Source: Escherichia coli 042 (GTDB lineage Bacteria; Pseudomonadota; Gammaproteobacteria; Enterobacterales; Enterobacteriaceae). Taken from it: a DNA stretch of 64,000 bases. The DNA is taken from assembly GCF_000027125.1 (NCBI RefSeq), contig NC_017626.1. The stretch is one strand, 5' to 3'. How positions within the stretch are numbered: position 1 is the stretch's first letter; each line of letters opens with the position of its first letter. Shown here piece after piece: positions 26,414 to 45,607 of the stretch. The notes beneath the pieces are model-generated. The model saw only the letters and a list, made by a program, of their open reading frames with translations. It ran no database searches and was not told the origin of the DNA. The position numbers were made by a program, and so were the translations under genes.

Positions 26414-26455
26414 TATAACACTGGAGAATAAAATTTATCCGGTGAATGTGGTCGG

Positions 26456-26502
26456 AAAACAAAGAGGAAAGGGGGGGGCTAATCGGCAGGGAAGGCCCCC
26501 CC
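26456..26502 (-). terminator. Candidate rho-independent terminator of yaiO
   Basis: On the minus strand a G7/C7 stem (26471-26478 with 26496-26502) is followed by tttcctctttgtttt. Confidence 0.6.
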
Positions 26503-26524
26503 GGATAGCGGGCGGCAGAAGGAA

Positions 26525-27298
26525 TCAGAATTTCCAGGTCAGATGGGCTGCAAGTTGCAGACCGTTATAATCATCGGTTGGGGTGTCGTACCACACTTTA
26601 CCTGCCGTCAGCCCGAGATTAAGTTGCTCAGTCAGCGGTTGAATACGTTGCAGACTGACGCTCTTCATGCTGCCGTAGCGTGTTTCTGGCGTCCAGTCAT
26701 AGGTGTAAGCACCTGTTCCGCGGCTTAGCCATAGTTGCGTATAACCAGTGCCGCGCGGGTCATTCAGACGCACGGAAATCATATTGCTGTAACTACCACC
26801 TGCATCGCTGGAGTCATAATGGGTATAGCGATAGCTGGTGATCACCGGGCCAGTATAGAGGGATACGCCGCCTTGCCAGGCATCGACTTCGACATCATCG
26901 TAATATTTAGTGTAGCGATAACCGGTCGTGAAAAGCGTTTTTGGCAACAGTGCCAGGTTAATATCCTGACGAAAATCCTGGCGGGCAAAGACCGGCGTAT
27001 TATCCGCAAAGGCAATACCCGTTCGGGTTGTCAGCCAGTTATTCCATTTATACCAGACCGCACCCTGACCGCGAGTGGCATTGAAATGTTCAGTTTCATA
27101 ATCACGACGCCCCTGGGAAAGATTAAAAAGCAGCGTTGCGTTTTCAACTTTCGCCACCAGTTCAGCATACGCTAAATTACGGTTGCCATGATCGCCAGAA
27201 TAATCGGTAAAATCGTAGCCCGCGGTAATGGAAGTTAACCCGGCATAAGCGGGCAATGTGCTAAAAATTGCTGCCGCTAATAACGTCCGTTTTATCAT
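26525..27298 (-). CDS. yaiO: Outer membrane beta-barrel protein YaiO
   Basis: 257-aa ORF with signal peptide MIKRTLLAAAIFSTLPAYA, alternating aromatic/hydrophobic strands, C-terminal aromatic ...HLTWKF. Confidence 0.88.
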   Translation of the reverse strand: MIKRTLLAAAIFSTLPAYAGLTSITAGYDFTDYSGDHGNRNLAYAELVAKVENATLLFNLSQGRRDYETEHFNATRGQGAVWYKWNNWLTTRTGIAFADNTPVFARQDFRQDINLALLPKTLFTTGYRYTKYYDDVEVDAWQGGVSLYTGPVITSYRYTHYDSSDAGGSYSNMISVRLNDPRGTGYTQLWLSRGTGAYTYDWTPETRYGSMKSVSLQRIQPLTEQLNLGLTAGKVWYDTPTDDYNGLQLAAHLTWKF

Positions 27299-27299
27299 T

Positions 27300-28010
27300 T
27301 TAATCTCCTGTACGGATAAGTTCTTGTCGGAGTGAATAAGTTCCGGTAGGTAAATTACGTTCTACAATCACGCGCGGGCCAAGTTGCGTGTTCGGGGAAA
27401 TAATTCGCCCAGGCAAAATAATAACTTGTACACCAAGGCGTGAACGCTGCCCGATATAACAACCTAATTTATCGCATTCGGTAGCGATAATTCCCTCTGG
27501 AGTTCGAACAGATACGGGCTGTTGATCCAGACGATGATTACTGGTACGTACTTGTGCGCCCAAATATGTCTGGTTTGCAACTACCGAGTCGGCGATAAAG
27601 CATTGCGGACCAATCGTTGCTTCCGCTTCAATAACCGCATTTTTAATTTCGGTGGCAAAACCAATTTTTACGCCATTGCTGATTATTGTGCCAGGACGAA
27701 TAAACGCATAATTACCTATCAGGCAGTTTGCGCCAATCACTACCGGACCCTGAATAACGGCACCGTGACAAATACGGGTATTCGCGCCGATAACAACTTC
27801 ACCTGCAGTTTCATCAATAATTACCTGGTCTGCAATCTGAATATTTTTCTCTTTAACATTAAGCTTCAGAAAGTTTTTCAGTTCCTGTGACAGAAGGTTG
27901 GGAATAAGCGGTTGACGCTTCCACCAGTGCGGAATAGCGGGTGGGTTTGTCGCGCTGAGGTTCGCGTCCAGTAAAAAAGGCAATAAGTCCATAAATAATC
28001 CAGATGGCAT
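27300..28010 (-). CDS. yaiX: Hexapeptide-repeat (left-handed beta-helix) acyltransferase; start uncertain
   Basis: Repeated [LIV]-G-x-x-x-x hexads (VIGANTRI, VIGANCLIGN, IGPQCFIA); the ORF overlaps the yaiP 3' end by about 150 bp. Confidence 0.75.
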   Translation of the reverse strand: MPSGLFMDLLPFLLDANLSATNPPAIPHWWKRQPLIPNLLSQELKNFLKLNVKEKNIQIADQVIIDETAGEVVIGANTRICHGAVIQGPVVIGANCLIGNYAFIRPGTIISNGVKIGFATEIKNAVIEAEATIGPQCFIADSVVANQTYLGAQVRTSNHRLDQQPVSVRTPEGIIATECDKLGCYIGQRSRLGVQVIILPGRIISPNTQLGPRVIVERNLPTGTYSLRQELIRTGD

Positions 28011-29055
28011 AAGCTAATAATACATACACAACGGAAAGCGGTGCTAAAGGCACCAACAACCAGCAACGATGAAACCAGGCGCTAAAAGCACCAATAACAC
28101 AAACTACGCCGACCCAGATAAGCGGAAACATTGCCAACACCACACCATGCGGCCCGGTGGTAATGAATTCATTAAACCAGGTAGTGAGATAAATCCCAAC
28201 GCCATAAAGCACAACCAACAGCATAGGAAATATACTGAAGATACCGAAGCGGCTAAATAAAAGTCTTTTATGCAGGCGCATACAGACCGCGTAGCCCACA
28301 ATCCAACGCCGCCAGCGACGCCACTCCTCACGCGGGCTGTTGCATTCCTGTGGGTATACGATGCAGCGATTCGCCTGCCGAATACGGTAGCCGTTTGCCA
28401 CCAATGTCCAGGTGAGATCAAGGTCTTCGACTTTAGTACGATCCGAGAAACCGAACTTACGCAATACATCAGTACGGAACATCCCGCAGGCACCGCTGAT
28501 AATAAACGGTGCGCCGCCCACGAGCTGCTGTAGCGTGCGCTTCATAACAATCATCGGCAACTTTACGGTCGCGCGGATGTGTGGTAACAGACCCGCGCCT
28601 TTCAACGCAGTAGAGGGAATGCCGCCTACGGCATCGGCACCGCGCTCAATTTCTGCCAGCATATAGCCCATTCCGTCTTGATCGGGCGGAACATAGGTGT
28701 CGGCATCACTTAAAAAAACCTGGTCGCAGGTGGCGTAATTGAGGCCATTCATCAGCGCACCACCTTTACCGGTATTTTTTTGCGTGACGGCAACAAAGCG
28801 GTCGCCCCATTTGCGTTTGACTTCCTCCATGACCGATTCGGTATTGTCCGTGGAGCCGTCGTTTACGCAAATTACCCGGCAAAAATAAGGGTTACGCAGC
28901 AGATTATCCAGTGACTGTGCCAGACACGGGCCTTCGTTATAAGCAGGTATAATGGCGTCAATACAGCCTTTCTTTTGACTGGGTTTACGTTTTAGCGTAC
29001 TTAAAAACCATAGCAACATTGCTATGGACATACAGATAAATATCCAGGTTTTCAT
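27859..29055 (-). CDS. yaiP: Family-2 glycosyltransferase with integral membrane domain
   Basis: 398 aa; N-terminal TM helix, GT-A core (CVNDGSTD, SDAD, RWRRW), then several C-terminal TM helices. Confidence 0.85.
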   Translation of the reverse strand: MKTWIFICMSIAMLLWFLSTLKRKPSQKKGCIDAIIPAYNEGPCLAQSLDNLLRNPYFCRVICVNDGSTDNTESVMEEVKRKWGDRFVAVTQKNTGKGGALMNGLNYATCDQVFLSDADTYVPPDQDGMGYMLAEIERGADAVGGIPSTALKGAGLLPHIRATVKLPMIVMKRTLQQLVGGAPFIISGACGMFRTDVLRKFGFSDRTKVEDLDLTWTLVANGYRIRQANRCIVYPQECNSPREEWRRWRRWIVGYAVCMRLHKRLLFSRFGIFSIFPMLLVVLYGVGIYLTTWFNEFITTGPHGVVLAMFPLIWVGVVCVIGAFSAWFHRCWLLVPLAPLSVVYVLLAYAIWIIYGLIAFFTGREPQRDKPTRYSALVEASTAYSQPSVTGTEKLSEA

Positions 29056-29064
29056 GCAATTTGC

Positions 29065-29736
29065 TCAAAGAATCATTTTATGAATTACAAAGCCTTCACC
29101 CAGATCGCTATTGACCTGTTGCCCGCGAAATTGTGCAACTGCACGCAGGCGATCCGGGCGCATATAATCACGATGGCCCTGGCTCTTATGCTGTTTTAAT
29201 GCAGCCAGTTTAATGGTGAAATATTCTTCTTCCACGGATTCAAAAACCTGTGGCATAAATGAAAGCCAGGTACTTGGCGTTTCATAGCCGAGAATTTGCG
29301 GAATAGCGCGACAGGCAACCATTGAGGCTTGATAGACTGCAAGATGATCCTGATGGCGGTCAGCATCATGCATGGTGTATACACGAATGATTTCTACATC
29401 AGACGGAATTTGTTTTTTAAGGACATCTTCCAGAGCGGAAATCATATCATTAAGTTGTAAATGAGTACGGGTGTCAGCAAAATTAAAATGAATAGTTTGT
29501 TGACACCCCAAAATGTTTAATGCTTCGAGTGATTCTTGATGTCGATTAATTATTTCACTCACGCCGGAATTACCCGATGTCATCACTACCGCTGCAATAT
29601 AGAACCCTTTTTTTGCAAGACGAGCGAGCGACGCGCCACAGCCCAATTCTATATCGTCAGGATGTGCGCCAATAGCAAGGATACCCTTTCTTTTATTTGC
29701 CGAAGAAAGGATGGCTGAATCTAAAACCTTATCCAC
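29065..29736 (-). CDS. yaiS: LmbE/PIG-L-like N-acetylglucosaminyl deacetylase
   Basis: ORF with AHPDDIELGCG motif near the N-terminus and a later HxDH motif; AT-rich coding sequence. Confidence 0.8.
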   Translation of the reverse strand: MDKVLDSAILSSANKRKGILAIGAHPDDIELGCGASLARLAKKGFYIAAVVMTSGNSGVSEIINRHQESLEALNILGCQQTIHFNFADTRTHLQLNDMISALEDVLKKQIPSDVEIIRVYTMHDADRHQDHLAVYQASMVACRAIPQILGYETPSTWLSFMPQVFESVEEEYFTIKLAALKQHKSQGHRDYMRPDRLRAVAQFRGQQVNSDLGEGFVIHKMIL

Positions 29737-30343
29737 TTAATGACACTCCATTTTATTTATTATACTACAAGCACAACGATGCCCACAGAGACGTAATCTC
29801 TGGCGCAGACAGATGCTAATATTTAAGTGTTAAAAATTGCTGATAGCTGAAAAATAAGGGGCTTTCAGGTACGTGGATACGACTGCGTAATCTTTTATGT
29901 AGTTCATATGTTAAGTGTTTGTGTGTTTGGTTTGTATAGTTATTTTGTTTTATATATTGTATTTAGATGTGATTTAGTTTGTCAATTAATTACATATTAA
30001 AAATATGTTCTATGCACGAATATGGATTATATACATTATGTGAATATATTATGTGGTTGATTGAGAATGATACAGTTATATATGCAATGTGAATATAATG
30101 GTTTCATTATATGTATTGCTGTTAATAAAATAAAAGACATTATAATCTGCTTGTTTATGCATTAATAAAATGAAGTGCAGTAACTTACTGAATTGTCAGA
30201 GTGGGTGTAATTGCATATTTAATCTTTCCTTTGCCGCTTTTTTGCTAAGAATAAAATCATCTGTGCGATAACGACTAATTCTTTTAATGAATGTTTTTAT
30301 TCCTGAATACTGCTCCTATAACAAGACAGGGGAGCAGACAATC

Positions 30344-31306
30344 ATGGCAATTTCATCGCGTAACACACTTCTTGCCGCACTGGCATTCATCGCTTTTCAG
30401 GCACAGGCGGTGAACGTCACCGTGGCCTATCAAACCTCCGCTGAACCGGCGAAAGTGGCTCAGGCTGATAACACCTTTGCTAAAGAGAGCGGGGCGACGG
30501 TGGACTGGCGTAAGTTTGACAGCGGAGCCAGCATCGTGCGGGCGCTGGCTTCAGGCGATGTCCAAATCGGTAACCTCGGTTCCAGCCCATTAGCGGTGGC
30601 AGCCAGCCAACAGGTGCCGATTGAAGTCTTCTTACTGGCGTCAAAACTGGGTAACTCCGAAGCGCTGGTGGTAAAGAAAACTATCAGCAAACCGGAAGAT
30701 CTGATTGGCAAACGCATCGCCGTACCGTTTATCTCCACCACCCATTACAGCCTGCTGGCGGCGCTGAAACACTGGGGTATAAAACCCGGACAAGTGGAGA
30801 TAGTGAACCTGCAGCCACCCGCGATTATCGCCGCATGGCAACGGGGAGACATTGATGGTGCTTATGTCTGGGCACCGGCGGTTAACGCCCTGGAAAAAGA
30901 CGGCAAGGTGCTGACCGATTCTGAACAGGTCGGGCAGTGGGGCGCGCCGACGCTGGATGTTTGGGTAGTGCGCAAAGATTTTGCCGAGAAACATCCTGAG
31001 GTAGTGAAAGCGTTCGCTAAAAGCGCCATCGATGCTCAGCAACCGTACATTGCTAACCCAGACGCGTGGCTGAAACAGCCGGAAAACATCAGCAAGCTGG
31101 CGCGTTTAAGCGGCGTGCCGGAAGGTGACGTGCCGGGGCTGGTGAAGGGGAATACCTATCTGACGCCGCAGCAACAAACGGCAGAACTGACCGGACCGGT
31201 GAACAAAGCAATTATCGACACCGCGCAGTTTTTGAAAGAGCAGGGCAAAGTCCCCGCCGTGGCGAATGATTACAGCCAGTACGTTACCTCGCGCTTCGTA
31301 CAATAA
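30344..31306 (+). CDS. tauA: Taurine ABC transporter periplasmic binding protein
   Basis: Translation MAISSRNTLLAALAFIAFQAQA (signal peptide); first gene of tauABCD. Confidence 0.92.
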   Translation: MAISSRNTLLAALAFIAFQAQAVNVTVAYQTSAEPAKVAQADNTFAKESGATVDWRKFDSGASIVRALASGDVQIGNLGSSPLAVAASQQVPIEVFLLASKLGNSEALVVKKTISKPEDLIGKRIAVPFISTTHYSLLAALKHWGIKPGQVEIVNLQPPAIIAAWQRGDIDGAYVWAPAVNALEKDGKVLTDSEQVGQWGAPTLDVWVVRKDFAEKHPEVVKAFAKSAIDAQQPYIANPDAWLKQPENISKLARLSGVPEGDVPGLVKGNTYLTPQQQTAELTGPVNKAIIDTAQFLKEQGKVPAVANDYSQYVTSRFVQ

Positions 31307-31318
31307 AAGGAGGCGCGG

Positions 31319-32086
31319 ATGCTGCAAATCTCTCATCTCTATGCCGATTATGGCGGCAAACTGGCGTTGGAAGATATCAACCTGACGCTGGAAAGCGGCG
31401 AGCTGCTGGTGGTGCTGGGGCCGTCTGGCTGCGGCAAAACCACCTTGCTGAATCTGATTGCCGGTTTTGTGCCTTATCAGCATGGCAGCATTCAACTGGC
31501 GGGTAAGTGCATTGAGGGACCGGGAGCAGAGCGGGGCGTGGTTTTTCAGAATGAAGGGCTGTTGCCGTGGCGTAATGTGGTAGACAACGTGGCGTTCGGC
31601 CTGCAACTGGCAGGTGTAGAGAAAGCACTGCGCCTGGAAATCGCGCACCAGATGCTGAAAAAAGTGGGGCTGGAAGGCGCAGAAAAACGCTATATCTGGC
31701 AGCTTTCCGGCGGTCAACGTCAGCGGGTAGGGATTGCCCGCGCGCTGGCGGCGAATCCCCAGCTGTTATTACTCGACGAACCGTTTGGCGCGCTGGACGC
31801 CTTCACCCGCGATCAGATGCAAACTCTGCTGCTGAAACTCTGGCAGGAGACAGGTAAGCAGGTGCTGTTGATTACCCACGATATAGAAGAAGCGGTGTTT
31901 ATGGCAACCGAACTGGTTCTGCTTTCACCCGGCCCAGGCCGTGTGCTGGAGCGGCTGCCGCTCAACTTTGCTCGCCGCTTTGTTGCGGGAGAGTCGAGCC
32001 GCAGCATCAAGTCCGATCCACAATTCATCGCCATGCGCGAATATGTTTTAAGCCGCGTATTTGAGCAACGGGAGGCGTTCTCATGA
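31319..32086 (+). CDS. tauB: Taurine ABC transporter ATPase
   Basis: Walker [13 protein letters not shown] signature LSGGQRQR. Confidence 0.94.
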
Positions 32087-32910
32087 GTGTGCTCATTAAT
32101 GAAAAACTGCATTCGCGGCGGCTGAAATGGCGCTGGCCGCTCTCGCGTCAGGTGACCTTAAGCATTGGCACGTTAGCGGTTTTACTCACTGTATGGTGGA
32201 CGGTGGCGGCGCTGCAACTGATTAGCCCGCTGTTTTTGCCGCCGCCGCAACAAGTACTGGCAAAACTGCTCACCATTGCCGGACCGCAGGGATTTATGGA
32301 CGCCACCCTGTGGCAGCATCTGGCAGCCAGCCTGACGCGCATTGTGCTGGCGCTACTTGCGGCGGTGTTGATCGGCATTCCGGTTGGGATCGCCATGGGG
32401 CTAAGCCCGACGGTGCGCGGCATTCTGGATCCGATAATTGAATTGTATCGCCCGGTGCCGCCGCTGGCGTATTTGCCGCTGATGGTGATCTGGTTTGGTA
32501 TTGGTGAAACCTCGAAGATCTTACTGATCTATTTAGCGATTTTTGCACCTGTGGCGATGTCGGCGCTGGCGGGGGTGAAAAGCGCGCAGCAGGTTCGCAT
32601 TCGTGCCGCCCAGTCGCTGGGTGCCAGCCGTGCGCAGGTGCTGTGGTTTGTTATTTTGCCCGGTGCGCTGCCGGAAATTCTCACCGGATTACGCATTGGT
32701 CTGGGTGTGGGCTGGTCTACCCTGGTGGCGGCGGAGCTGATTGCCGCGACGCGCGGTTTGGGTTTTATGGTCCAGTCAGCGGGTGAATTTCTCGCGACTG
32801 ACGTGGTGCTGGCGGGGATCGCGGTGATTGCGATTATCGCCTTTCTTTTAGAACTGGGTCTGCGCGCGTTACAGCGCCGCCTCACGCCCTGGCATGGAGA
32901 AGTACAATGA
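32083..32910 (+). CDS. tauC: Taurine ABC transporter permease
   Basis: 275-aa multi-pass membrane protein, 4-bp overlap with tauB and tauD. Confidence 0.93.
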
Positions 32911-33758
32911 GTGAACGTCTGAGCATTACCCCGCTGGGGCCGTATATTGGCGCACAAATTACGGGTGCCGACCTGACGCGCCCGTTAAGTGATAACCAGT
33001 TTGAACAGCTTTACCATGCGGTACTGCGTCATCAGGTGGTGTTTCTGCGTGAACAGGCCATTACGCCGCAGCAGCAACGCGCGCTGGCCCAGCGTTTTGG
33101 CGAGCTGCATATTCATCCTGTTTACCCTCATGCCGAAGGGGTTGACGAGATTATCGTACTGGATACTCATAACGATAATCCGCCAGATAACGACAACTGG
33201 CATACCGATGTGACATTTATTGAAACGCCTCCTGCTGGGGCGATTCTGGCGGCGAAAGAGTTACCCTCGACTGGCGGCGATACGCTATGGACCAGCGGTA
33301 TTGCGGCGTATGAGGCACTCTCTGTTCCCTTCCGCCAGCTGTTGAGCGGGCTGCGTGCGGAGCATGATTTCCGTAAATCGTTCCCAGAATACAAATACCG
33401 CAAAACGGAGGAGGAGCATCAACGCTGGCGCGAGGCGGTCGCGAAAAATCCGCCGTTACTACATCCGGTGGTGCGAACGCATCCGGTGAGCGGTAAACAG
33501 GCGCTGTTTGTGAATGAAGGCTTTACTACGCGAATTGTTGATGTCAGCGAGAAAGAGAGCGAAGCCTTGTTAAGTTTTTTGTTTGCCCATATCACCAAAC
33601 CGGAGTTTCAGGTGCGCTGGCGCTGGCAACCAAATGATATTGCGATTTGGGATAACCGCGTGACTCAGCACTATGCCAATGCGGATTACCTGCCACAGCG
33701 GCGGATAATGCATCGGGCGACAATCCTTGGGGATAAACCGTTTTATCGGGCGGGGTAA
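32907..33758 (+). CDS. tauD: Taurine dioxygenase (alpha-ketoglutarate dependent)
   Basis: 283-aa [32 protein letters not shown]; HxD...H iron-binding residues. Confidence 0.94.
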
Positions 33759-33797
33759 GGGGGAAATGCCGGGTTGGATAACCCGGCATAATGATCA

Positions 33798-34772
33798 TTA
33801 ACGCAGAATCTTCTTCTCAGCCAAATCCAGCGCAAAGTAGCTGAAAATCAGATCCGCACCCGCACGCTTAATCGAACCTAAGCTTTCGAGCACGACTTTC
33901 TCTTCATCTATAGCACCCGCCAGCGCGGCGAACTTAATCATCGCATACTCACCGCTCACCTGATACGCGCCAATCGGCAATTCAGTACGTCCACGCAGCT
34001 CACGCACGATGTCGAGGTACGCTCCAGCTGGTTTCACCATCAGGCAGTCTGCGCCCTGGGCTTCATCCAGCAATGATTCACGAATCGCCTCACGACGGTT
34101 CATTGGGTTCATCTGATAGCTTTTGCGGTCGCCTTTTAATGCGCTTCCTGCCGCTTCGCGGAACGGGCCATAAAAGGAAGAGGCAAACTTGGTCGAATAC
34201 GACATAATCGCCGTATCTTTAAAGCCCGCAGCGTCCAGCGCCTGGCGAATCGCCTGTACCTGACCATCCATCGCGGCGGAAGGGGCGATGAAGTCCGCAC
34301 CTGCAGCAGCTGCAACCACGGCTTGCTTGCCTAAATTTTCCAGAGTCGCGTCGTTGTCGACGCCATGCTCGCACAGCACACCGCAGTGACCGTGAGAAGT
34401 GTATTCACAAAAGCAGGTGTCTGACATCACGATCATTTCAGGCACGGTCTGCTTGCAGATGCGCGACATCCGCGCCACCAGTCCATCTTCCCGCCAGGCA
34501 TCGCTGCCGGTTTCATCGGTATGGTGAGAGATGCCGAAAGTCATCACGGAACGAATACCGGCGTTGGCGATGCGTTCAATTTCGCGTGCCAGATGTTTCT
34601 CAGGAATGCGCATCACGCCTGGCATGGCTTCAACGGCTTTGTAGTCGTCAATTTCTTCTTCAACAAAGATCGGCAACACCAGGTCGTTAAGGCTAAGTGT
34701 TGTCTCTTCAAACATAGCGCGCAGCGCAGGAGATTTGCGCAGGCGACGAGGGCGTTGGATTAAGTCTGTCAT
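33798..34772 (-). CDS. hemB: Porphobilinogen synthase (delta-aminolevulinate dehydratase)
   Basis: Translation [26 protein letters not shown]...; internal start chosen within ORF 33798..34883. Confidence 0.93.
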
Positions 34773-35297
34773 GGTCTGCCTGATGTTTGTGGAATCGAGG
34801 GGCATAGTATACCTGAAGCAGGGTGGGGATGTTTTACGAAAGTTGTCGCGATGTTGACAAGAAGAGAATGAAAGAGAGTCCATGACATCTTTGTAATAGA
34901 AACAGCAATAATTTCATATTCACTGAAAATATTTTTAATTTTTATTTATATCCCTGGATTATTGTTTTTACGGATTTGATTGCGTTATCAAAAACAGAAT
35001 GATTTAAAGTTCATTGGTTATTGATAGATTATTTGTCTGGTTTGTGTGTTTGATATTTTAAATGCATATGCTTTAAAAATGGAACTCCTGTTAACTTGTT
35101 GAAACATCAAGCCTTTATCAATTTTTTCTTTGTGTGTTCCTCCGTGCTTTATATATGTCCGTAACCGGACTTCGGGGAAAGAATAATTGAACCATTCCTC
35201 TATAACGCCGCATAATCGTCAACGCGAAACATAAGATGTTTTCTATGCATTGATAATTGATGGATCAACTTATTACGTCCCTGAGGAGGGATGACAA

Positions 35298-38216
<2,919 letters not shown>

Positions 38217-44885: not shown

Positions 44886-45346
44886 CTTAAAAACCTATCC
44901 CGTCTAACACAAAGTGCATACATTACCACGACAAAACGGGGGATTCGCGGCCTTCTGACAGAATGTTGCAATCTTCTGCTGACAAAGCGTGCAACGTACT
45001 GGTGAAGAAAGTGCGTTATCTCAATGATGTGCGCAAGATCACAAAAATGATGAACGGGAAGCTAATTTATTCCTGGCTTGTATGGCCATGCAGTGAGTTT
45101 TTTCTCTTAATTATAAGTTAACGAAGAGAATATATTTCATAACTTTTATTTATAATAAAGGTTGATAATTAAAAGCCTATATTTTGTGTGGGTAATTATT
45201 AAAATAAGAGAAACGTTTCGCTGGTAATCAAACAAAAAATATTTGCGCAAAGTATTTCCTTTGTCATAAAAATAATACTTCCAGACACTATGAAGTTGTG
45301 AAACATAATGTTAACTTCTCCATACTTTGGATAAGGAAATACAGAC

Positions 45347-45607
45347 ATGAAAAATCTCATTGCTGAGTTGTTATTTAAGCTTGCCCAAAAAGAAGAAGAG
45401 TCGAAAGAACTGTGCGCGCAGGTAGAAGCTTTGGAGATTATCGTCACTGCAATGCTTCGCAATATGGCGCAAAATGACCAACAAAGGTTGATTGATCAGG
45501 TAGAGGGGGCGCTGTACGAGGTAAAGCCCGATGCCAGCATTCCTGACGACGATACGGAGCTGCTGCGCAATTATGTAAAGAAGTTATTGAAGCATCCTCG
45601 TCAGTAA
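45347..45607 (+). CDS. iraP: Anti-adaptor protein IraP
   Basis: 86-aa [36 protein letters not shown]. Confidence 0.92.

Follow-up and report, generated by a model that had tools for sequence, protein, structure and literature searches.

In the stretch of Escherichia coli 042 DNA analysed here (64,000 nucleotides, hereafter the window), the genes yaiS and tauA diverge from a 607-bp spacer that is non-coding according to both the list of open reading frames (ORFs) and the RefSeq annotation; since yaiS starts with a GTG at 29736 and tauA with an ATG at 30344, the non-coding gap corresponds exactly to the interval reported in Table 1. On one side, yaiS is an intact ORF of 223 aa with a complete PIG-L domain, and the genes yaiS, yaiP, yaiX, and yaiO are co-oriented and tightly packed, successive genes being 9 nt apart, overlapping by 23 nt, and 1 nt apart, in that order. 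This is the divergent yaiSPXO operon layout that an earlier, sequence-only reading of this DNA had described, and the strongly AT-rich gap of about 600 bp that it had placed between yaiS and tauA proved exact in its coordinates, and nowhere else in the window is the DNA so rich in A and T. Indeed, the spacer has a GC content of 30.0% (window, 51.9%) and a 2.8-fold enrichment in TpA steps over the window average; among all 607-nt frames of the 64 kb, the one with the lowest GC content begins at 29718, and among the 200-nt frames the minimum (20.5% GC) belongs to the one beginning at 29935.

The spacer is orthologous to the yaiS (b0364)/tauA (b0365) region of E. coli K-12, with which it shares flanks and orientation and aligns end to end at 87% identity; the K-12 counterpart (384617-385231, 615 bp) is the longest inter-feature gap in 49 kb of K-12 annotation. 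A 2-kb query around the spacer was 100% identical in E. coli BEC1-S17-ESBL-09 and matched 5,421 of the 5,426 complete genomes. No Rfam 15 covariance model matched the spacer at E<=1; the sole Rfam match in the interval 27000-33000 was a chance snoRNA match inside tauB/tauC.

Table 1. Features of the yaiS/tauA spacer and of the islet to which it belongs (positions in the window).
Feature	Positions	Strand	Remarks
Variable islet: yaiO, yaiX, yaiP, ykiC, yaiS, spacer, upstream part of the type A promoter	26443..30305		Comparison with island-less genomes
yaiS (PIG-L deacetylase)	29736..29065	minus	GTG start (29736..29734)
yaiS/tauA spacer	29737-30343
M1, yaiS translation start region	29737-29776	minus	80% identity to deep alleles; 23% polymorphic columns (9/40)
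yaiS SD, GGAG	29749..29746	minus	In M1, 9 nt before the GTG
TATAAT	29764..29759	minus	In M1, perfect match
Linker 1, unconstrained yaiS leader part	29777-29890		40-42% identity to deep alleles; 78% polymorphic
25-codon ORF	29907..29830	minus	Starts at a conserved ATG (29907)
M2, conserved core with the predicted distal yaiS promoter, 120 bp	29891-30010	minus	79% identity to deep alleles; 28% polymorphic
30-codon ORF	29908-30000	plus	Inside M2; peptide MLSVCVFGLYSYFVLYIVF...
Predicted yaiS -10, TACAAT	29961..29956	minus	Predicted start near 29949
Predicted yaiS -35, TTGACA	29985..29980	minus	18-nt spacer to the -10
Linker 2, unconstrained AT-rich DNA	30011-30208		41-44% identity to deep alleles; 73% polymorphic
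Repeat ATGTGAATATA	30038 and 30087		49 bp apart
Repeat TTAATAAAAT	30122 and 30162
27-codon ORF	30082-30165	plus	ATG at 30082, stop to 30165; peptide MQCEYNGFIICIAVNKIKDIIICLFMH
M3, tauA promoter, 135 bp	30209-30343	plus	81-83% identity to deep alleles, 98% to K-12; 30% polymorphic
tauA -35-like, TTTAAT	30283-30288	plus	In M3
tauA -10, AATACT	30306-30311	plus	In M3
tauA SD, GGAG	30331-30334	plus	In M3
tauA	ATG at 30344	plus	Divergent from yaiS

Conserved modules, the tauA promoter, the predicted yaiS promoter, and the yaiS leader

A first alignment of this allele with those of E. coli CE10, UTI89, and K-12 and of E. whittamii was extended with 33 distinct metagenomic alleles and with two deep ones, from the metagenome contigs OBUV01000004.1 and Ga0209547_100063, giving 40 alleles in all; the yaiS-spacer-tauA context was the same in 80 of 80 metagenome contigs. 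Over the spacer, identity to the two deep alleles is only ~71%. Their retrieval relied on a pattern of 24 nt lying within M2, which inflates the conservation of those 24 nt but not that of the ~95 nt around them. On the basis of this alignment, the spacer can be described as three putatively selected modules (M1, M2, and M3) joined by two apparently fast-evolving, AT-rich linkers (Table 1). M2 is more conserved than the linkers (Fisher P~1e-12 when the deep alleles are compared); for K-12 and E. whittamii, neither of which was retrieved by means of the search pattern, P~0.001. Linker 1 holds the 25-codon minus-strand ORF and small hairpins, and linker 2 both pairs of short repeats, the 27-codon ORF, a 9-bp indel relative to K-12, and several insertion sequence (IS) sites.

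M2 embeds a predicted sigma-70 promoter for yaiS, correctly oriented 212 nt upstream of the GTG, which matches the consensus at 11 of 12 positions and is the sole promoter-like site that a consensus scan detected in 29500-30500. Two matches of this quality occur in the whole 64 kb, and one also occurs in 9.8% of composition-preserving shuffles. The two hexamers and the distance between them (TTGACA-18-TACAAT) are invariant in seven alleles, including those ~41% identical around the promoter. M2 also comprises an A/T-rich, UP-like tract upstream of the promoter and, at its end, a C/A-rich, G-poor 42-nt leader that reaches the conserved ATG. The hexamers are those proposed for K-12 by Shimada 2014; the published yaiS promoter was itself predicted from the sequence, within a SELEX peak of low resolution. 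The sequence-only reading had held that what drives the yaiS side is unclear; this has to be amended in that a published candidate already exists and is invariant in this allele. As for M1, it contains the SD of yaiS and a perfect TATAAT that may act as a proximal -10 element.

On the opposite side, M3 carries the -10 and the -35-like elements of the tauA promoter as well as the SD of tauA, and the tauA start, placed from the position of the -10, probably lies near 30318, that is, 7 nt after it. Like ssuEADCB, the tauABCD operon has a sulfate-starvation promoter activated by Cbl and CysB, of which it is a textbook target; each promoter targeted by Cbl, that of K-12 tauABCD included, has one binding site for it. 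On the K-12 promoter, the Cbl footprint reportedly extends from -112 to -68, which we take to be equivalent to ~30206-30250 in this DNA; M3 begins at 30209, where -112 falls if tauA starts at ~30318. M3 is identical to K-12 at 132 of 135 positions (98%), and it is on this K-12 promoter that the Cbl footprint and multiple CysB footprints are said to have been made. The motifs TTGCCG.TTTTTT.CTAA and TAATTC.TTTA are common to all 12 aligned promoters and collinear in nine other taxa.

It is worth considering the yaiS leader separately, since the conservation of M2 spans both the promoter and the 42-nt leader and ends 1-3 nt past the ATG at 29907, and the conservation of the first 42 transcribed nucleotides is not explained by the promoter alone. 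The C/G ratio of the leader is 3.2, which corresponds to the 99.8th percentile of 80-nt frames, and an ORF starts from that ATG in seven of seven alleles (25 codons in five of them, 17 in the deep ones), with unrelated peptides. These features would suit a leader endowed with an additional control, in which the translation of an upstream ORF, and not its peptide, modulates Rho-dependent termination as a second layer of silencing. However, the ATG lacks an SD, and the retention of the ORF is unsurprising, as random substitutions would interrupt the frame in about one case out of two (P~0.5 per allele). Moreover, neither the ribosome-profiling supplement of Stringer 2021 nor the 3'-end supplements of Adams 2021 contain an entry for the spacer, though the locus is silent in the conditions used there. 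The predicted fold of the leader is not unusual (z=-1.08), and the helix that alignment folding predicted between leader nucleotides 33-53 and the SD-start region of yaiS was rejected, being less stable than in shuffled sequences (-9.9 kcal/mol vs a shuffle mean of -11.1, P=0.72); only one of 46 pairs is compensatory. On balance, we regard such a leader switch as rather unlikely. The 25-codon ORF was also rejected as a conserved peptide, in that nearly all its codon changes are nonsynonymous (8-11, vs 0-1 synonymous, in UTI89 and E. whittamii, the most diverged indel-free alleles) and its retention has the probability given above.

Islet context and two forms of the tauA promoter

The spacer forms the right end of a variable 3.9-kb islet, yaiO-X-P-S, which 80% of 5,426 E. 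coli genomes carry. When the window is compared with island-less E. coli, with E. albertii, and with Escherichia sp. E1V33, similarity is lost at ~26442 and is regained only at 30306, which is the first base of the tauA -10. In island-less strains such as SA186 and ST131, frmR is followed by a REP element and then by a tauA promoter of a second form, called type B below; this frmR-REP-tauA arrangement was found in 594 genomes, and in the O157:H7 strain H2495 a different islet (a two-component system, a UhpC-like protein, and an ABC transporter) adjoins the same type B form. The spacer was detected in 4,363 of the 5,426 E. coli genomes, in single copy in these 4363, and its alleles fall into at least three deep classes, with 647 genomes at an identity to the window of at least 95%, 465 at 90-95% (for example, UTI89 and Nissle), and 3,251 at 80-90% (K-12-like). 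The identity to K-12 varies along the locus, being 98-99% from yaiO to yaiP, 78-89% in yaiS and the spacer, and 92-97% in tauABCD.

A plasmid-borne yaiOXPS copy, 89.6% identical, loses its homology inside yaiS at 29706 and has a 1-kb upstream region of its own (31% GC), which is unrelated to the spacer; homology between the two upstream regions was rejected, as there is none beyond 29706. The plasmid homology ending within yaiS implies that the spacer is specific to the chromosomal site and is not part of the mobile cassette. The search for plasmid homologues of the spacer yielded no real ones, the only "plasmid" matches being mis-filed chromosomes. That the spacer is the remnant of a MITE or of another mobile element was also rejected, given that its best 30-nt inverted repeat is expected by chance (P=0.37) and that it is single-copy.

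The region attracts insertion sequences. In other strains, an IS1 lies at 30133-30143, two ISKpn26 copies at 30103-30110, and another IS1 is accompanied by a deletion that reaches 29970; an IS3 was found at 29678, an IS1A at 30343-30351, and an IS2 at 30575. For the spacer query, matching places outnumber matching records by 171. During a laboratory evolution experiment, an IS5 also inserted into yaiS.

The question arises, then, whether only the ~135 bp next to tauA are functional, the rest of the spacer being neutral filler or the scar of the islet insertion, upstream of a yaiSPXO cassette that is decaying and whose promoter is no longer maintained. This idea is in agreement with the unconstrained linkers, with the many IS insertions and deletions just described, and with the finding that no other part of the locus is as diverged as yaiS and the spacer; furthermore, in K-12 yaiS is truncated and yaiX is split by an IS2, and yaiS is marked as a pseudogene in many RefSeq annotations. 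If it were correct, however, one would hardly expect M1 and M2 to show about twice the conservation of the linkers (P~1e-12), nor an 11/12 promoter to stay invariant in alleles that are otherwise ~41% identical around it, nor yaiS to be intact in the window. In our opinion, a decaying cassette next to a functional tauA promoter alone is quite improbable.

The tauA promoter shared by the window and K-12 (type A) differs from the type B form conserved in Enterobacteriaceae. Over the ~100 bp upstream of the -10, the two forms align without gaps and share 48 of 100 positions vs 28 expected (P<5e-5). Of the 5,426 E. coli genomes, 1,027 (19%) have type B, which is the form conserved in E. albertii, Escherichia sp. 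E1V33, Citrobacter, Klebsiella, Enterobacter, Leclercia, Kluyvera, and others, where it is 68-92% identical to E. coli type B. Type A was found only together with the yaiOXPS islet, in E. coli and in E. whittamii; the two deep metagenomic alleles have it too, and these are slightly closer to type B. Both E. whittamii and one of the deep alleles (metaL145) switch to a type-B-like sequence nearer the -35, which argues for the two forms being alleles of a single locus that recombine with each other. Since E. albertii and E1V33 are island-less, the islet together with type A appears to be the derived state.

Short repeats and small open reading frames

The spacer had also been said to contain internal short repeats and a 27-codon ORF. 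Both pairs of repeats are indeed present as quoted, and the ORF exists, but neither observation is accompanied by a sign of function. The longest exact repeat, of 11 nt, is at chance level (P=0.16 in 2000 dinucleotide-preserving shuffles), and so is the count of repeated 10-mers in the spacer (P=0.10); moreover, both pairs are degraded in the K-12 allele. As regards the ORFs, five ATG-initiated frames of at least 27 codons occur in the spacer vs a shuffle mean of 2.6 (P=0.085). Short repeats and small ORFs thus look like by-products of the AT-rich composition.

We considered in particular whether the spacer might encode a small protein, for which there are two candidates, the 27-codon ORF and the 30-codon plus-strand ORF; the latter has in its favor a hydrophobic peptide and a location inside the conserved M2. 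Nevertheless, K-12 has neither the start of the 27-codon ORF nor an open frame in its place (ATG to ATA, plus an in-frame TAG); this ORF is missing in E. whittamii also, and it was rejected as a gene on account of its loss in other alleles. In the deep alleles, a 1-nt deletion shifts the frame of the 30-codon ORF even though the DNA there is still conserved, on which grounds this ORF was rejected as well; most of the substitutions in it are nonsynonymous, and, depending on the allele, it is between 30 and 48 codons long. With an ORF count not above that of the shuffles, and with no entry for the spacer in the ribosome-profiling data already mentioned (Stringer 2021), a small protein encoded here is very improbable.

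That ATGTGAATATA and TTAATAAAAT are bound by a transcription factor that regulates tauA or yaiS can be dismissed as extremely improbable, since, even though the first pair extends to an imperfect 22-nt one (30027/30076, 18 of 22 matching, P=0.04), exact repeats of this kind are at chance frequency, both copies are mutated in K-12, and they lie in linker 2, which is ~41% identical in deep alleles; as functional sites, the short repeats were rejected for their chance-level frequency and lack of conservation.

Proposed silencing of the islet and possible meaning of the two promoter forms

The spacer, its occupancy by H-NS, the binding of RNA polymerase to it, and the control of tauA by Cbl and CysB are already known from the literature on K-12. 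Panyukov & Ozoline 2013 (PMC3661553) included yaiS(-)/tauA(+) among 78 "promoter islands", defined as regions of at least 300 bp with unusually dense transcription start points predicted by PlatProm; three methods predict the genes linked to the K-12 island to be foreign, and H-NS binds the island "according to all studies" compiled there (ChIP). According to Shimada 2014 (PMC3946193), the RpoD-holoenzyme binds the K-12 spacer in vitro (genomic SELEX), the spacer is flagged as containing an H-NS site, and the proposed promoters are TTGACA-18-TACAAT for yaiS and TTGAGA-16-TACAAT towards tauA. A peak of the RpoS-holoenzyme was reported in the same K-12 spacer by Shimada 2017, and after coordinate conversion it seems to map near M1. 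In wild-type K-12, no transcription start was detected at either predicted promoter, the only one being a 2-read antisense start inside tauA (Kim 2012), and this absence fits silencing. The divergent promoter region silenced by a bound nucleoid protein, which the sequence-only reading had proposed, matches these K-12 data (H-NS ChIP, RNA polymerase binding, no start detected), and the check that it had suggested against published H-NS ChIP data finds the K-12 spacer bound in all the studies compiled; in the light of the promoter-island, SELEX, and start-site papers, that interpretation is essentially the published view. For this allele, 87% identical to that of K-12, binding of H-NS would be expected from its composition.

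The K-12 promoter island (383994, length 309, in old coordinates) corresponds to ~29890-30190 here, that is, to M2 plus linker 2. The two resemble each other in the locus, in their AT-richness, and in the proximity of genes predicted as foreign, the K-12 one being reported as H-NS-bound and poorly transcribed; they differ in that this is another allele, 87% identical, in which the island looks like a composition effect around one strongly conserved promoter. Indeed, promoter-like hexamer pairs (a proxy, different from PlatProm) number 13 in the 607 bp, which is 3.7-fold the window mean and places the spacer among the top frames, but dinucleotide shuffles contain 21±5, so that there are fewer of them than the composition gives. 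The property of being an "island" can thus be viewed as a consequence of AT-richness. An enrichment in the Lang H-NS motif was rejected, the single match in the spacer being no more than its length predicts.

The arrangement is similar to that of bgl and of the csgD/csgB type-A spacers of Shimada 2014, in that a strong intrinsic promoter, here a predicted one, is embedded in low-GC DNA. As in acquired operons silenced by H-NS, such as bgl, the locus is silent in the wild type (K-12) and has received repeated independent IS insertions upstream. Unlike the case of H-NS-silenced systems such as bgl, we know of no anti-silencer or inducing condition for yaiSPXO.

Taken together, the evidence makes it likely, in our view, that this is a divergent spacer in which a tauA promoter activated by Cbl and CysB and a near-consensus yaiS promoter coexist with silencing by H-NS, in a layout of three modules and two linkers. 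On the tauA side, M3 would act as a sigma-70 promoter that needs activators, its -35 (TTTAAT) being weak and its -10 being AATACT; under limitation of sulfate or cysteine, Cbl and CysB would bind it from ~-112 to -35, switching it on; this activation is established for K-12, and the 98% sequence identity suggests that it also holds here. On the yaiS side, the promoter of M2 would be bound by RNA polymerase unaided, giving rise to a leader of ~212 nt that ends in the SD and GTG of M1. The DNA of 20-30% GC around and between the modules would recruit H-NS, whose filaments over M2 might keep the horizontally acquired yaiSPXO cassette silent in laboratory conditions. Such silencing relies, for K-12, on the H-NS occupancy and on the lack of a detected start; for this allele, it is what its base composition would predict.

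As first noted, the spacer is of little import, its main points having already been published for K-12. The module map adds to this by separating the parts of the so-called promoter island that appear to be under selection from the noise of composition. Going further, we can speculate, with considerable doubt, that the K-12 tauA promoter is a deeply diverged, non-ancestral, islet-borne allele that has replaced the DNA upstream of the tauA -10 in ~80% of E. coli, thereby putting tauABCD beside a silenced AT-rich domain; in such a case, the regulation of type A and type B might differ in strength or in its dependence on H-NS, CysB, or Cbl, and the yaiS leader, with its position-conserved ATG, may mark a translation- or Rho-coupled switch of the islet. 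More modestly, the model tauA promoter appears to be a derived allele linked to the islet, the other form being retained by a fifth of E. coli and by all neighbouring genera; the contrast between type A and type B thus offers a natural experiment on how the acquisition of an H-NS-silenced islet may reshape the promoter of a neighbouring core gene.

The junction between frmR and tauA and its promoter haplotypes

The E. coli frmR-tauA junction (window 26443-30305; comparison loci L006, L004, L015 and L008) exists in at least three states. In about 80% of E. coli it is occupied by the yaiOXPS islet, as in the window; in 594 genomes, for example those of ST131, the islet is absent and the order is frmR-REP-tauA; in O157:H7 H2495 a different islet is found, encoding a two-component system, a UhpC-like protein and an ABC transporter. 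O145 strains, whose tauA promoter variant matches that of H2495, may harbor this same alternative islet, H2495 being the strain whose gene context was inspected. Neither E. albertii nor Escherichia sp. E1V33 has an islet at this junction.

Upstream of the -10 element, two haplotypes of the tauA promoter can be distinguished (window 30206-30305 compared with L006:5901-6000). Type A, that of K-12 and the window, shares with type B only 48 of 100 positions; type B is the form kept across Enterobacteriaceae genera; type A represents a separate deep clade whose internal identity is 74-85%.

The spacer between yaiS and tauA has also been reached by insertion sequences in other strains. IS1, IS1A, IS2, IS3 and ISKpn26 were inserted independently within or beside it (L005, L089-L093; window 29678-30580), one IS1A copy lying at the start codon of tauA, and a deletion mediated by IS1 extends from within yaiO to position 29970. 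When the spacer was used as a query, the matching places exceeded the matching records by 171.

The yaiOXPS cassette

The features discussed here are listed below; the gene set of the cassette resembles that of a small pga-type module for exopolysaccharide synthesis, modification and export.

Coordinates of the cassette, its genes and other features of the window
Feature	Position	Strand	Remarks
yaiOXPS cassette	26525-29736	-	PIG-L deacetylase, GT2 glycosyltransferase, hexapeptide acyltransferase, YaiO outer-membrane beta-barrel
yaiS	29065-29736	-	intact ORF, 223 aa, complete PIG-L domain
ykiC	29080-29199	+	encodes a small protein of 39 aa; YkiC-like by Pfam (E=1.6e-22)
AT-rich spacer	34823-35160		equivalent of the K-12 hemB/yaiT gap
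AT-rich spacer	45005-45390		equivalent of the K-12 ddlA/iraP gap
Sigma-70 consensus match (11/12)	36082	-	TTGACA-17-AATAAT, within the yaiT-equivalent region

A cassette composed of yaiO, acetyltransferase, yaiP and PIG-L genes is also present on a 221-kb E. coli plasmid (L007, NZ_CP170375.1, 148335-151541), where it is 89.6% identical to window 26527-29706 and adjoins an IS66 remnant as well as PAPS-reductase/IbrB-like genes. The four genes therefore move together as one mobile cassette.

As for yaiS, the K-12 gene is annotated as encoding 185 aa, yet the alignment covers the full 223 codons, and so a premature stop is implied; in many genomes, including the window's twin (BEC1-S17-ESBL-09, 100% identical around the locus), PGAP calls the gene a partial pseudogene. 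YaiS is only 88% identical to the K-12 protein, far below the flanking genes. As in K-12, ykiC lies antisense to the 3' end of yaiS.

Other spacers of the window and published K-12 data

The two further AT-rich spacers have 200-nt GC minima of 24%, and the hemB/yaiT one likewise differs strongly from its K-12 equivalent, with 73-75% identity at 34917-35216. In alignment with K-12 the tauD-hemB spacer (33684-33916) scores poorly, at 54-68% per 200-nt frame; the gap measures about 39 bp in the window versus 106 bp in K-12, a difference which is probably a REP-type indel. The match at 36082 is the sole further one of its quality in the window.

Kim et al. (2012) reported a weak antisense start (2 reads) in the tauA 5' coding region, equivalent to about 30362-30412 (-) of the window, and credited it to yaiS as a start 634 nt upstream of that gene; it coincides with neither predicted promoter. 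The 78-entry promoter-island table (PMC3661553) contains ssuE/elfA and cysB/ymiA in addition to yaiS/tauA, so that three sulfur-regulon loci border promoter islands, which may be a coincidence.

Deep alleles of the locus

Two metagenome contigs, L128 (OBUV01000004.1) and L145 (Ga0209547_100063), represent a far deeper allele of this locus, with identities of about 71% in the spacer, 84.5% in yaiS, 92-94% in tauA and 91% in the upstream genes; their source is presumably an unsampled Escherichia lineage.
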